Notes: generated from the letters alone by a model not told the origin. 64,000 bases of DNA from Alteromonadaceae bacterium (GCA_965656875.1 CBFHMJ010000028.1:70292-134291); one strand, 5' to 3'; positions 29,052 to 35,447 are shown, numbered from the stretch's first letter. A program made the numbers and translations.

Positions 29052-30692
29052 CTAATGTTGGTTACAAATCGCTTTCCATGTTAATCCAAATTTTGCGAGA
29101 TATTTTTGCAGGCGAGCAGAGTCATTGTTGCTGGCTTTTGAAAGGCGACTGACGTTAAACAAGCGACGTCCGGCAGCGGCCATTGATGGATGCTGGCGAC
29201 ATACATTGATAACGTGTTGGAGCTGGTGTTGGTCGAATTCGTCAATGGTGGCGAGTTGTTGTTCCGTTAGCCAGTTAGTCAGTGCTGTTTGTTCAGAATG
29301 TTTTTGTTCTGAAAGTGTATTACCGCCCCATGCTTGTTGAAGTCGAGGGAGTTCGTCAGCAACATCGGCTCGAGTGATCCGAGAGGTTTCTGCCAACGTA
29401 CATAAACGGGTGACAGAAGCGCCAAGGTCGCGGAAGTTACCGCGCCAGAGAGCCTGAGGTGCCTGAGCGAAGGCAAGATAATCTTCCCGGGCTTCTTTGT
29501 TGAACTGAATGCGGTAGCCGGTTTTTTCAGTATATTTGTCGAGTTCAAATTCAATATTGGCGGGAATGTCTTCCTTTCGGTCCTTAAGGCCGGGTAACTG
29601 CCAGCTCCAGAGGTTAATTCGAGCCAGTAAGTCTTCACGAAATCGACCTTGTGCAATGTGTAGCCATAAATCTTGATTGGTGCCTGCGATCAATTGAAAA
29701 TCACTACTAACCGGTGTATCGCTGCCGACGGGATGAAAACGTTTATTTTCGATGGCATGTAGTAGCATTGCTTGTTCTTCTAATCCAAGCTCACCAATTT
29801 CATCCAGAAACAACACACCATTGTCTGCAGTTAACAAAAAACCATCCCGTGCTTTTTGTGCGCCGGTAAATGCGCCTTTGGTATGGCCGAACAAGGCAGC
29901 CATGGCGTTCTCTCCCTTTAATGTTGCACAGTTAACGGCGACGAATTCTCCACTGACCAGCCCACGTTTTTGTTTGAGCTGATAAATTCGCGATGCAAGC
30001 TGGCTTTTACCTGCTCCGGTTGGGCCGGTAATAAGCATAGGCTCTACGGTTTTCAGCGCGACCTTTTCGATATGATCAATGAGCTGATTAAACGCCGGGT
30101 TTTTGGTTTGAATACCATTTTTCAAAAAGGTAGTTGCTTCGTGTTGCTCGGCATTAAAACGGTTTGCTAGTTGATCATAACGGGACAAATCAAGATCGAT
30201 GATATGGAATTTACCAACAGAACGATTGCTTTCTTTTGGGCTTGGTGACGTTTGTATCAAACGGCCAGGAAAGTGACGACTTTCGGTAAGTAGAAAGGTG
30301 CAAATTTGAGTGACGTGAGTGCCCGTCGTGATATGGAAAAGCAGATCGGCGTCTTCTTCGGAAAAGTTTTGTTGTTTTAACCAGTCGTAGGTCTTGCCAT
30401 AAGCTTCTTCAAAATCCCAGGGGTCATGCATGTTGACATTGTGCAGATGAACGGTGGTTTCAGGCGATACGCTTTTGATGTCTGCAACGATATTGCCTGC
30501 CAGTCTGAGACTGTGATTGTCATGTAGCAGATGAAGTTCGTCGATCAGCAGATCGGGTTGGCTGACAAGGCTGATGGTCGGCCTCCAGCGATTCCAGCGT
30601 TCGACACGTTTTCCTGCAAAGTCGAGCTGTGTGCCAATAAAGCCAACGGCAACGGTAGGTTTATCCATTCTTATATCCGATTGATCGAACAT
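29052..30692 (-). CDS. rtcR: Sigma54-dependent transcriptional activator RtcR (CARF-like N-domain, AAA+ GAFTGA domain, C-terminal HTH)
   Basis: The N-terminus (MDKPTVAVGFIGTQLDFAGKRVERWNRWRPTISL) aligns with E. coli RtcR. The AAA+ module has Walker A GPTGAGKS and the sigma54-contact motif GAFTGA. It is divergent from rtcB and rtcA. The true start may be the internal Met at about 30668. Confidence 0.85.
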   Translation of the reverse strand: MFDQSDIRMDKPTVAVGFIGTQLDFAGKRVERWNRWRPTISLVSQPDLLIDELHLLHDNHSLRLAGNIVADIKSVSPETTVHLHNVNMHDPWDFEEAYGKTYDWLKQQNFSEEDADLLFHITTGTHVTQICTFLLTESRHFPGRLIQTSPSPKESNRSVGKFHIIDLDLSRYDQLANRFNAEQHEATTFLKNGIQTKNPAFNQLIDHIEKVALKTVEPMLITGPTGAGKSQLASRIYQLKQKRGLVSGEFVAVNCATLKGENAMAALFGHTKGAFTGAQKARDGFLLTADNGVLFLDEIGELGLEEQAMLLHAIENKRFHPVGSDTPVSSDFQLIAGTNQDLWLHIAQGRFREDLLARINLWSWQLPGLKDRKEDIPANIEFELDKYTEKTGYRIQFNKEAREDYLAFAQAPQALWRGNFRDLGASVTRLCTLAETSRITRADVADELPRLQQAWGGNTLSEQKHSEQTALTNWLTEQQLATIDEFDQHQLQHVINVCRQHPSMAAAGRRLFNVSRLSKASNNDSARLQKYLAKFGLTWKAICNQH

Positions 30693-30847
30693 GATCTATA
30701 TACTATCCAAAAATATATCTAACTATAAAAACAGATATATTTTAGTGTTTTTACAGTAAAGGTCAATAAAGGAAAAATAACGGATTAATATTTTTTAATT
30801 CATTAAAAACAGTGGGTTATAAATTTGTTTTTTGGTTTTTTATCAAT

Positions 30848-30863
30848 TGGCACGTGGGTTGTA
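30848..30863 (+). promoter_or_regulatory. Sigma54 (-24/-12) promoter-like element, TGGCACG-N4-TTGT
   Basis: The sequence ttGGcacgtgggtTGTa matches the TGGCAC-N5-TTGCW consensus except for a GC-to-GT change at -12. It points toward the rtc operon, about 80 nt upstream of the tRNA-like element, and faces away from rtcR. Confidence 0.45.
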
Positions 30864-30942
30864 ATAAAGACGATTGAAACGAGGCAATTATTTCGTTGCC
30901 ACGGTGCGCAATGCGATGCAACAGCGTATTCCGGTGTTTCTC

Positions 30943-31014
30943 TTTTTTGTAGCTCATTCGGTAGAGCAATCGTAATAAAACGATGGGTAGCAGGTTCGAT
31001 TCCTGTCAAAAAAA
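30943..31014 (+). ncRNA. 72-nt tRNA-shaped element (Y-RNA/YrlA-like tRNA mimic), not a functional tRNA
   Basis: The sequence is TTTTTTG-TA-GCTC-ATTCGGTA-GAGC-A-ATCG-TAATAAAA-CGAT-GGGTAG-CAGG-TTCGATT-CCTG-T-CAAAAAA.
- The acceptor stem is 7 bp and entirely A:U with one G:C.
- The D-arm is canonical (GCTC/GAGC, 8-nt loop).
- The T-arm is perfect (CAGG/CCTG, TTCGATT loop).
- The anticodon arm is degenerate: a 4-bp stem and an 8-nt loop, with no plausible anticodon context.
- There is no 3' CCA. Confidence 0.5.
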
Positions 31015-34154: not shown

Positions 34155-34190
34155 TATTAGTCAGGGTCAGAAAATAAGAAGGGCGTTAAC

Positions 34191-35366
34191 GTGAACGCAG
34201 CAGTAAATGCAATCATGCAGTCATTTAGCATGATGAGAAAAAGGGAGAACACGCAGGAAATGGATGCACAGCAAAATACAGAAAAGCAGGATGCTAAAAC
34301 TCACAATAAAAAAACCATTGTTATAGATGGATCGTTTGGAGAAGGCGGTGGACAGGTACTTCGTACTGCGTTGACATTATCGTTACTGACGGGAAGAGAC
34401 TTGCAAATCAGTAACATTCGAGCAGGACGTAAGCGGCCGGGATTATTACGACAGCATTTAACTTGTGTTAAAGCGGCGATTAAGATCTCTGGTGGTCAGG
34501 CGACAGGTGTAAAACCGGGATCGACAGAGTTATATTTTAAACCGGGTCAGGTTTTGGCGGGAGATTATCACTTTGCTATTGGCACAGCCGGTAGCACATC
34601 GCTGGTATGTCAGACCATATTTTTACCGTTAGCATTAACCGGGCAGACATCCAGAATAACTTTTGAAGGAGGCACGCATAACGGGATGTCACCCTCAGTA
34701 ACGTTTCTGGATAAGAGTTGGCTGCCCATAATGAAAGGAATTGGGATTGATACAATACTTTCATTAGAAAAATATGGTTTTTATCCTGCGGGAGGAGGGC
34801 GCTGGACGTTAACCATTAACCCGATGGCAATTGCGCAAACCCAGGTATTGTCATTCCCGGTATTATGTCCGCCGATACCTGAATACTTGTTTGATACATT
34901 AAAAGCGACGGTGTTACTAAGTCGTTTACGTCGTTCAGTCGCAACGGATGAAATAGCGGAAGTTCAACAACAAACAGGCATGGAAGAAACAGCGTCCGAA
35001 GTGATTGTTACTGATTCATCGGGGCCAGGTAATAGTGTGATTTTAACGACCGATGGTAGTCAGTCGGTTGTACCTGGCTTTAGCTATTGCTTTGAAGAAA
35101 CCGGTGATATTAATCTTGCTGAAAAGAAAGTTGCCCAACGGGTTTCTCAACGATACCTGGGATTTGTAAACAGTAATGCTCAGATAGATGAGCATCTGGC
35201 TGATCAATTATTGCTACCAATGTTGGTAGCAGGTAGTGGTGAGTTTACGACGACAAAGTTGTCGTCCCATACCATCACAAACATTGCGATTATCGAGCAA
35301 ATTCAAGACTGCTCATTTACAGTGGAAGGATTACCGCAAGGCTTGTGGCGAATTGCACTGAATTGA
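34191..35366 (+). CDS. rtcA: RNA 3'-terminal phosphate cyclase RtcA (with ~40-aa N-terminal extension relative to E. coli)
   Basis: The segments IVIDGSFGEGGGQVLRTALTLSLLTG...IRAGRKRPGLLRQHLTCVKAA...FAIGTAGS...YPAGGG match RtcA. The GTG start at 34191 has AAGGG 7 nt upstream. Alternative ATG starts up to 34260 are possible. Confidence 0.9.
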   Translation: MNAAVNAIMQSFSMMRKRENTQEMDAQQNTEKQDAKTHNKKTIVIDGSFGEGGGQVLRTALTLSLLTGRDLQISNIRAGRKRPGLLRQHLTCVKAAIKISGGQATGVKPGSTELYFKPGQVLAGDYHFAIGTAGSTSLVCQTIFLPLALTGQTSRITFEGGTHNGMSPSVTFLDKSWLPIMKGIGIDTILSLEKYGFYPAGGGRWTLTINPMAIAQTQVLSFPVLCPPIPEYLFDTLKATVLLSRLRRSVATDEIAEVQQQTGMEETASEVIVTDSSGPGNSVILTTDGSQSVVPGFSYCFEETGDINLAEKKVAQRVSQRYLGFVNSNAQIDEHLADQLLLPMLVAGSGEFTTTKLSSHTITNIAIIEQIQDCSFTVEGLPQGLWRIALN

Positions 35367-35412
35367 AGACTGATTTTTTCAGCGATCAAACAAGGTTCTG
35401 ATTAATTAAAAA

Positions 35413-35447
35413 CCCCGATACTTATCACAAGTACCAGGGGTTTTTTT
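35413..35447. terminator. Rho-independent terminator downstream of rtcA (also serves convergent minus-strand fragment)
   Basis: The sequence is aaaaaCCCCgaTACTTatcacAAGTAccaGGGGttttttt. It forms a bipartite stem with a 7-T tract, and an A-run on the other side. Confidence 0.6.

Follow-up and report, generated by a model that had tools for sequence, protein, structure and literature searches.

Why should an RNA-repair operon carry a gene for an SPFH/Band-7 protein and, immediately upstream of it, a gene for a tRNA look-alike? This question is raised by an intact RNA-repair cluster at positions 29052-35447 of a 64,000-nucleotide (nt) stretch of DNA from an Alteromonadaceae bacterium (GCA_965656875.1, CBFHMJ010000028.1:70292-134291; the whole stretch is called the window here, and its positions are used throughout). 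In this cluster, rtcR on the minus strand is divergent from a tRNA-like gene, an SPFH gene, rtcB and rtcA, all on the plus strand. A first-pass annotation of the same DNA had named these components, and each of them lies where it had been placed. The annotation had also called the cluster a candidate variant; we find instead that the arrangement is the described Band-7/b7a-tRNA form, with an identical gene order in 20 of 80 related loci. The locus is complete and divergent, belongs to a known class that was defined by bioinformatics, and is not a new variant. It is ordinary for its class. Our answer, which we hold to be probable, is that this complete member of the Band-7/b7a-tRNA class is a repair operon in which the Band-7 protein and the leader RNAs serve as a cofactor ribonucleoprotein.

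The link between the SPFH gene and the tRNA-like gene recurs widely. A scan of one genome for each species detected relatives of the SPFH protein in at least 558 species, and we took the best 80 loci, which together with the window's own contig (L001) make up 81 sources; relatives in the database number more than 7,800 proteins at E ≤ 1e-5, some of which may be generic SPFH proteins. ARAGORN found one to three tRNA-like genes on the SPFH strand, at most 1 kb upstream of the SPFH gene, in 60 of the 81 sources. With a covariance model (R1) built from the tRNA-like genes that ARAGORN had found, a tRNA-like gene was detected upstream of SPFH in 73 of the 80 related loci, all 159 matches lying on the SPFH strand; two of the seven loci without a match have less than 400 nt of upstream sequence. 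The arrangement spans Gammaproteobacteria, Betaproteobacteria, Cyanobacteria and Myxococcota. At least one rtc gene is nearby in 54 of the 80 loci, and several operon orders occur: rtcR divergent from RNA-SPFH-rtcB-rtcA, as in the window, accounts for the 20 loci mentioned above, rtcR divergent from rtcB-rtcA-RNA-SPFH for 12 of the 80 and rtcR divergent from RNA-SPFH-rtcB for eight, and the remaining rtc-bearing loci fall into smaller architecture classes. Across these orders, the tRNA-like RNA goes with the SPFH gene, not with the promoter. The first-pass annotation had proposed a census of RtcR loci for the four-part arrangement, which proved to be common in Alteromonadales, Pseudoalteromonas and related groups. 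Both of the rtcR/RNA-SPFH-rtcB loci that were checked have a form that contains RlaP and lacks rtcA: the RlaP (PF10127) nucleotidyltransferase gene lies between SPFH and rtcB (L021, 6230-7054; L018, 3587-4216), and L018 has a PcfJ-like gene downstream.

The regulator and the two enzymes belong to well-defined families. RtcA cyclises 3'-phosphate ends of RNA, and RtcB joins 3'-phosphate or 2',3'-cyclic-phosphate ends to 5'-OH ends. The rtcR gene (29052-30692, minus strand) encodes a CARF-domain AAA+ sigma54-dependent activator of 546 amino acids (aa), which matches the NCBIfam equivalog NF038308 with 769.5 bits (cutoff 650) and the PADLOC model RtcR--CARF_AAA_HTH with 808.7 bits; Pfam places PF06956 (RtcR, the CARF domain) at residues 11-193 and PF00158 (Sigma54_activat) at residues 195-361. 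The nearest Rtc proteins belong to genomes of Alteromonadales type, among them, for RtcR, an Alteromonadaceae M269 protein with 68% identity. The rtcB gene (32868-34154, plus strand) encodes the RNA ligase (PF01139, 421 bits, full-length match), whose translation contains the metal- and GMP-binding motifs MPDVHFG, DIGCGM, GTGNHF, HSGSRG, NCHHNY and SHGAGR; a Motilimonas protein, among the nearest relatives, is 79% identical. Its true start is probably the ATG at 32913, which has GGAG upstream, and the rtcB gene call in the window's own contig has 413 aa. The rtcA gene (34191-35366, plus strand) encodes the RNA 3'-terminal phosphate cyclase (PF01137, 243.6 bits; TIGR03399, 295.6 bits, cutoff 250), carries the DEHLADQL motif with the catalytic histidine, and probably starts at about 34260. 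The catalytic histidine and cysteine motifs are intact in the RtcB and RtcA translations.

The spacer of 480 nt between rtcR and the SPFH gene holds the promoter and the tRNA-like gene. A motif scan predicts a sigma54-type promoter, TGGCAC-N5-TTGTA (TGGCACGTGGGTTGTA), at 30848-30863 on the plus strand, with a perfect -24 element. Taken alone, the motif lacks significance, as the window has 5 matches where 3.4 are expected; its position is conserved, with TGGCAC-N5-TTG lying between rtcR and the first RNA element in 26 of the 28 related loci with a divergent rtcR. Transcription would start near 30874. At a tolerance of one mismatch this is the sole sigma54 match inside the module, with no second motif, and a terminator scan found no plus-strand terminator-like site within it. 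The intergenic gaps are short, as they are in the 20 relatives with identical architecture: 36-105 nt between rtcB and rtcA and 39-84 nt between SPFH and rtcB, the span depending on the choice of start codon. Sigma70-like matches in the module are below chance (12 found, 14.8 expected). Because the promoter position is conserved, the gaps are short and no internal plus-strand terminator or sigma54 motif is found, a single RtcR/sigma54 transcript, as the first-pass annotation had proposed from the gene order, is the best-supported reading of the sequence. That annotation had further described the module as bounded by terminators. This holds for the 3' end, where a predicted bidirectional intrinsic terminator (35408-35447) consists of a hairpin followed by U7 on the plus strand and also serves the convergent gene on the minus strand (-14.6 kcal/mol, z = -3.86; none of 200 shuffles folds as well). 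It does not hold for the other end, where 21 nt separate the rtcR stop codon from the stop of a convergent EamA gene and no terminator was found in that gap.

The b7a-type tRNA-like gene lies at 30943-31015 on the plus strand (30943-31014 by some calls). It is recognised by the Rfam tRNA model (51 bits, gathering score 29, E = 5.5e-8), by ARAGORN, which labels it 'tRNA-Phe(AAA)', and by model R1 (76.3 bits), and its sequence folds alone as a cloverleaf (z = -2.66). The D arm and T arm are canonical. The 'anticodon' loop has 6 nt (AAUAAA), the 3' end is A-UCA with no encoded CCA, and the acceptor stem consists of six U-A pairs and one G-C pair. Because of these three features, the RNA, judged by its sequence, cannot be a decoding tRNA.

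The wider family points in the same direction. Its D arm (GCUC/GAGC) and T arm (GGUUCGAnUCC) are nearly invariant, and in the family alignment (A2) 93.9% of cells are paired, against 68% after shuffling, with compensatory changes at 18 of 21 pairs; this covariation is to be read with the caveat that the sequences were chosen by a tRNA finder. The loops of the same alignment are variable: 20 of 74 (27%) differ from 7 nt, the 54 loops of 7 nt have U33 in just 32 cases, and 24 different 'anticodons' occur. The acceptor stems of the family are A/U-rich and have at least one mismatch in 51 of 74 sequences. Near-invariant D and T arms combined with a free anticodon loop argue for recognition of the tRNA elbow or of the overall shape, not for decoding. 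Many loci have two to three tandem tRNA-like genes with differing anticodon loops (UGA, UCG and UUA in L014). In L010, L014, L015, L016, L019, L020, L021 and others (at about 4600-4820 in those loci), tandem copies overlap by 1-4 nt, such that the 3' acceptor end of one copy is the 5' end of the next; their loops include 6-nt and 8-nt forms. Elsewhere, arrays of 5-18 canonical-looking tRNA genes adjoin SPFH and/or rtcB on the same strand (L032, L036, L046, L050, L051 and L074), an arrangement reminiscent of Anabaena, where TrcR co-regulates a tRNA array, rtcB and a slipin gene (PMC10272220).

In the window, the tRNA-like cloverleaf is the middle part of a leader of about 300 nt, between an element that we call A and a hairpin, element C. 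The whole 303-nt leader folds no better than its shuffles (z = -0.18), so we dropped the single-sequence argument for its structure, and the evidence is covariation instead. Element A (30873-30942, plus strand) is a predicted three-way-junction RNA, modelled by its minimum free energy (MFE) fold and by covariance model R3. In the MFE fold, stem P1 pairs 30876-30881 with 30935-30940 and encloses hairpins H1 (30883-30900) and H2 (30904-30929); the invariant features are GGUGC...GUAUnCC and two G-U pairs. Its 5' end coincides with the predicted transcription start, and its 3' end stops one base short of the tRNA-like gene. Model R3 finds element A in 41 of the 81 sources, always on the plus (SPFH) strand, and where the locus was inspected, no more than about 15 nt separate its end from the first tRNA-like gene. 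In the alignment, which was fitted to the model, 96.7% of cells are standard pairs against 77% after shuffling, and 10 of 13 pairs show compensatory changes. The matches include cyanobacteria (L056, L067, L069 and L077), Alcanivoracaceae and L038, where the element is located after rtcA. Element A is thus conserved from Cyanobacteria to Gammaproteobacteria, and its presence after rtcA and in cyanobacteria ties it to the tRNA-like gene rather than to sigma54.

Element C (31069-31161, plus strand; apex 31093-31135) is a long imperfect hairpin predicted from MFE folds and covariation. Its apex carries the conserved motif GCAAGCnGGAu..GCUCC, and its base ends one nucleotide before the SPFH Shine-Dalgarno sequence AAGGAG. 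The motif occurs once per locus, on the plus strand, in 25 other loci (26 sources), about 70-140 nt upstream of the SPFH start codon; 86% of cells are standard pairs against 65% after shuffling, with compensatory changes at 10 of 12 pairs. A model of the hairpin (R2) found no copies beyond the clade used to build it, so element C is clade-specific. Other clades have a different, longer conserved spacer of 330-550 nt between the tRNA-like gene and the SPFH start (L030, L035, L036, L038, L041, L044, L047, L064, L072 and L032). This spacer looks like a further large structured RNA: it contains a hairpin (GTCGTnnnnnAACGAC), a lone T-arm-like sequence (GGGGTTCGAnTCCCC) and, just before the Shine-Dalgarno sequence, long-range complementary boxes (AGAGGCCCATGG ... 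GGGTGGGCCTCRCC), and it had no Rfam match in the loci scanned. Elements A and C likewise correspond to no family in Rfam 15, since the leader, searched at a permissive threshold, and 14 related loci gave the tRNA only. As far as checked, both elements are undescribed: they are absent from Rfam 15 and go unmentioned in the summary of the class in bioRxiv 10.1101/312249. In two Aliiglaciecola loci (L024 and L029, at about 4560-4660), element A is found upstream of SPFH with no detectable tRNA-like gene, and two Providencia loci (L052 and L057) have neither. These cases suggest that the RNA modules can be lost or can diverge independently. Two open reading frames (ORFs) over the leader of the window, of 111 aa (30825-31160, plus strand) and 101 aa (30803-31108, minus strand), were rejected as spurious, since both lie over the conserved RNA structures and the plus-strand ORF starts upstream of the promoter.

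The SPFH/Band-7 gene ('slipin family'; 31173-32828, plus strand) encodes a protein of 551 aa, 41-51% identical to its nearest relatives, with a Pfam Band_7 match at residues 323-494 (E = 5e-34). Its layout comprises two N-terminal beta modules of about 150 aa each, the SPFH domain and a long C-terminal helix. Residues 6-145 and 156-307 are two copies of the N-terminal module (34% identity, E = 2e-29), and this duplication is why the protein exceeds the usual family length of 384-390 aa. Two further modules are present in one relative, P0002 (683 aa), and an extra one, at a different insertion position, in the forms of Pseudoalteromonas luteoviolacea and Vibrio quintilis, so the number of modules varies within the family, as it does in vault-protein repeats. 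In the AlphaFold model (predicted local distance difference test 82.7), four 5-stranded beta modules precede the SPFH domain and a 60-residue helix. Among Foldseek matches in the PDB, major vault protein (MVP) alone aligns along the whole chain (about 645 columns, E = 6.5e-14, template modelling score 0.31), whereas stomatin, HflK/C, prohibitin, erlin and flotillin match just the C-terminal 220-250 residues. Pfam reports only Band_7 and Band_7_1, with no match to the MVP repeat or shoulder. The first-pass annotation had assigned the protein to a membrane-scaffold family. That description finds no support, since no transmembrane segment is predicted, the highest 19-residue Kyte-Doolittle mean is 1.18 and the N-terminus is a beta module. 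The protein is a bona fide SPFH protein which, according to the predicted structure, has a vault-like domain order and no visible membrane anchor. The 'bacterial MVP homologs' of a 2019 preprint were set aside as other proteins, which have more than 50% identity to MVP and lie outside the SPFH family described here.

How does the cluster compare with known systems? Band-7/b7a-tRNA RtcB repair systems were described by Burroughs and Aravind (NAR 2016), according to bioRxiv 10.1101/312249, which also relates the proposal that the b7a-tRNA/Band-7 module is functionally redundant with YrlA/Rsr. The window shares the two hallmarks of this class, a Band-7 protein beside RtcB, the Band-7 stop codon lying 39-84 nt before rtcB, and a tRNA-like non-coding RNA (ncRNA) immediately upstream. 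The additional presence of RtcR and RtcA is no essential difference. The peculiarities of the window are the duplicated N-terminal module, the single tRNA-like copy, the 6-nt loop and the almost all-A/U acceptor stem.

The rsr-yrlBA-rtcBA operon of Salmonella offers a second parallel. In both, rtcB and rtcA, together with genes for a putative scaffold protein and a tRNA-mimicking ncRNA, are placed under a divergent rtcR and a sigma54 promoter, which in the window is a predicted one. The window differs in having an SPFH protein in place of the TROVE/Ro60 protein, and no TROVE match was found by Pfam among the module proteins or their immediate neighbours. Its RNA differs as well, being a near-complete cloverleaf flanked by other structures rather than a Y RNA with a Ro-binding stem; a search with Rfam gave no Y RNA family match at E ≤ 10 in 30700-31250, a weak negative, as bacterial YrlA may not be modelled there. 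The E. coli rtcR/rtcBA system has the same regulator, the same two enzymes and a promoter of the class predicted in the window; it is not known to carry an SPFH gene or any tRNA-like or structured leader RNA.

A functional link finds independent support in Anabaena. In this organism rtcB, a tRNA array and alr0739-alr0740 (annotated 'slipin family protein') are under the control of the repressor TrcR, and antibiotics that inhibit translation derepress its targets (PMC10272220). There, as is proposed for the window, a slipin-family gene (alr0740, a putative relative), rtcB and tRNA genes are brought together under stress, but by a repressor instead of RtcR/sigma54 and from dispersed genes. In Calothrix (L056), element A and tRNA-like genes precede a putative equivalent of alr0739-alr0740, an operon of two genes of which SPFH is the last. 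The membrane-anchored SPFH scaffolds (stomatin, HflK/C, flotillin and QmcA) have the SPFH domain in common with the protein of the window; the N-terminal anchor was not found in it, nor was an NfeD domain found by Pfam among the neighbouring proteins.

We propose the following model. In Salmonella, and for the RtcR of that organism only, activation by tRNA fragments ending in 2',3'-cyclic phosphate has been shown (PMC7790460). In the window, RNA damage, such as tRNA halves with 2',3'-cyclic phosphate, would be sensed by the CARF domain of RtcR, which would then activate the predicted sigma54 promoter, so that a single RNA of about 4.6 kb is made, spanning about 30874-35447. The leader would give rise, by processing, to a stable ncRNA. 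This RNA would bind the SPFH protein, for which a large ring or cage is the probable form, as in all solved SPFH proteins. The resulting ribonucleoprotein, which we infer to be analogous to Ro60/Y RNA, would hold or present broken tRNA or rRNA, in the role of a scaffold or cofactor, and would be the counterpart of Ro60 (Rsr) and Y RNA in Salmonella rsr-yrlBA-rtcBA. RtcA would turn 3'-phosphate ends into 2',3'-cyclic phosphate, and RtcB would seal these to 5'-OH ends. We favour this repair ribonucleoprotein because of the four family assignments, the published association of Band-7, b7a-tRNA and RtcB, the 73 of 80 loci in the census, the conserved predicted promoter and the covariation of elements A and C, and because the RNA stays beside SPFH in all operon orders and the SPFH model has no membrane anchor.

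Several observations weigh against this model. The -12 element of the predicted promoter is non-consensus, TTGT (GT) where the consensus has TTGC (GC); many of the 26 conserved sites are likewise non-C at this position. The SPFH protein has an isoelectric point of 5.7, its N-terminal modules carry no marked basic charge, module a alone being basic, and the charge analysis of the modules gave no RNA-binding signal in its sequence. In 26 of the 80 loci there is no rtc gene within 5 kb, and the occurrence of SPFH and RNA without rtc genes in about one-third of loci implies that their role may not be repair-specific. According to bioRxiv 10.1101/312249, the expression and processing of b7a-tRNA and its binding by Band-7 are without experimental validation. 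Finally, a 2026 survey describes an SPFH gene, PaFlo8, embedded in the rtc locus of Pseudomonas aeruginosa, whose deletion gave no phenotype in growth, virulence, motility, biofilm and oxidative-stress assays.

The leader could instead work in cis. Element A, the tRNA-like fold and element C would then be a structured 5' untranslated region that governs the stability, processing or translation of the SPFH-rtcBA mRNA rather than a trans-acting ncRNA, for example through autoregulation by SPFH or RtcB at hairpin C where it abuts the Shine-Dalgarno sequence. We consider this a possibility, though a rather unlikely one. It would explain the location of all three elements, downstream of the promoter and upstream of the SPFH start codon; it would also explain why the base of hairpin C stops one nucleotide short of AAGGAG, and why the elements are always immediately upstream of the SPFH ORF on the same strand. 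It agrees less well with the RNA elements of at least 12 loci, which come after rtcA, in mid-operon, while still preceding SPFH, and with element C, which is clade-specific, other clades having a different, longer structured spacer in its place. In addition, RNA units with the shape of a tRNA are as a rule cut out by RNase P and 3' processing enzymes. The cis role and the trans-acting role are not mutually exclusive.

Could the tRNA-like RNAs be decoys? They would competitively inhibit anticodon nucleases and other toxins that target tRNA, or act as baits for them, and would be stabilised or sequestered by the SPFH protein, while RtcB and RtcA carry out repair in parallel. The many loci with two or three tandem copies that differ in their anticodon loops fit this idea, as does the wide variation of the loop in sequence and length on a conserved body. 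However, known anticodon nucleases (PrrC, colicin E5/D and similar enzymes) depend on the anticodon loop being a specific, natural one, and both the 6-nt AAUAAA loop of the window and the 27% of family loops that are not 7 nt long would be poor mimics. Moreover, the RNA is downstream of a promoter that would be damage-induced, so a decoy would appear only after the damage. We judge the decoy role unlikely.

A CARF-triggered anti-phage or abortive-infection system is a far more remote prospect. RtcR does have a CARF domain, PADLOC includes the model CARF_AAA_HTH, and RNA-repair systems have been framed as responses in biological conflicts (Burroughs and Aravind, as related in bioRxiv 10.1101/312249). 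The resemblance that the first-pass annotation had seen to nucleotide-sensing defence systems comes down to this domain of RtcR, however. The CARF-based defence systems share the CARF sensor with the window, but Pfam and PADLOC found no toxic effector domain, be it a nuclease, a pore-forming protein or another effector, and PADLOC, which matches RtcR, matches none of the SPFH protein, RtcB and RtcA. Furthermore, the output of RtcR is transcription activation, only one relative was found in 2.9 million viral contigs, and the GC content of the region gives no island signal. The module is at most a damage-repair, counter-toxin system. As for chance, the view that an ordinary tRNA gene, a pseudogene or an integration-site remnant, such as the ARAGORN label tRNA-Phe might suggest, lies beside an unrelated SPFH insertion in an rtc operon runs against the 6-nt anticodon loop, the lack of CCA and the AAA 'anticodon', and is effectively refuted by the census, in which the arrangement recurs in 73 of 80 loci from four bacterial groups with covarying flanking RNA elements.

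The favoured repair ribonucleoprotein could also take a more specific form, which we put forward tentatively and think doubtful: the operon may encode a soluble vault-like ribonucleoprotein, in which an SPFH cage or ring and a composite RNA made of element A, the cloverleaf and element C would capture broken tRNA or rRNA for RtcB. The eukaryotic vault (MVP, vault RNA and TEP1) likewise combines repeated 5-stranded beta modules, an SPFH-like 'shoulder' and a long helix, and the SPFH gene of the window is likewise paired with a gene for a putative small structured RNA. If true, this would connect RNA repair in bacteria with the eukaryotic vault/TEP1/vault-RNA particle, itself unexplained. The residual novelty of the locus lies in the two added conserved leader RNA structures and in the vault-like, anchor-less SPFH architecture, which leave its classification unchanged. 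As a compact and complete copy, with regulator, promoter, three structured leader RNAs, SPFH protein, ligase, cyclase and terminator, it provides exact coordinates and covariance-supported structures for leader RNAs that are open to deletion or pull-down.

The surroundings of the module were described broadly correctly in the first-pass annotation, with an ECF-type (extracytoplasmic function) sigma factor, an EamA transporter and a paralogue fragment of a giant repeat protein. At 26538-27635 on the minus strand, the sigma factor (161 aa) is followed by an ORF of 186 aa that has hydrophobic stretches and matches nothing in Pfam; this ORF may encode the anti-sigma partner of the factor. On the other side of the module, an ORF of 249 aa (35479-36228, minus strand) is paralogous to the repeat unit at the C-terminal end of the 4298-aa protein next to it (37% identity, E = 6e-33), and short broken ORFs just upstream of it (36426-37072, minus strand) are possibly a decayed copy. 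The 64-kb window contains three giant ORFs, of 5801 aa (7015-24420, plus strand), 4298 aa (37410-50306, minus strand) and 2102 aa (56111-62419, plus strand), the second of which has several near-identical internal repeats of about 570 aa each.

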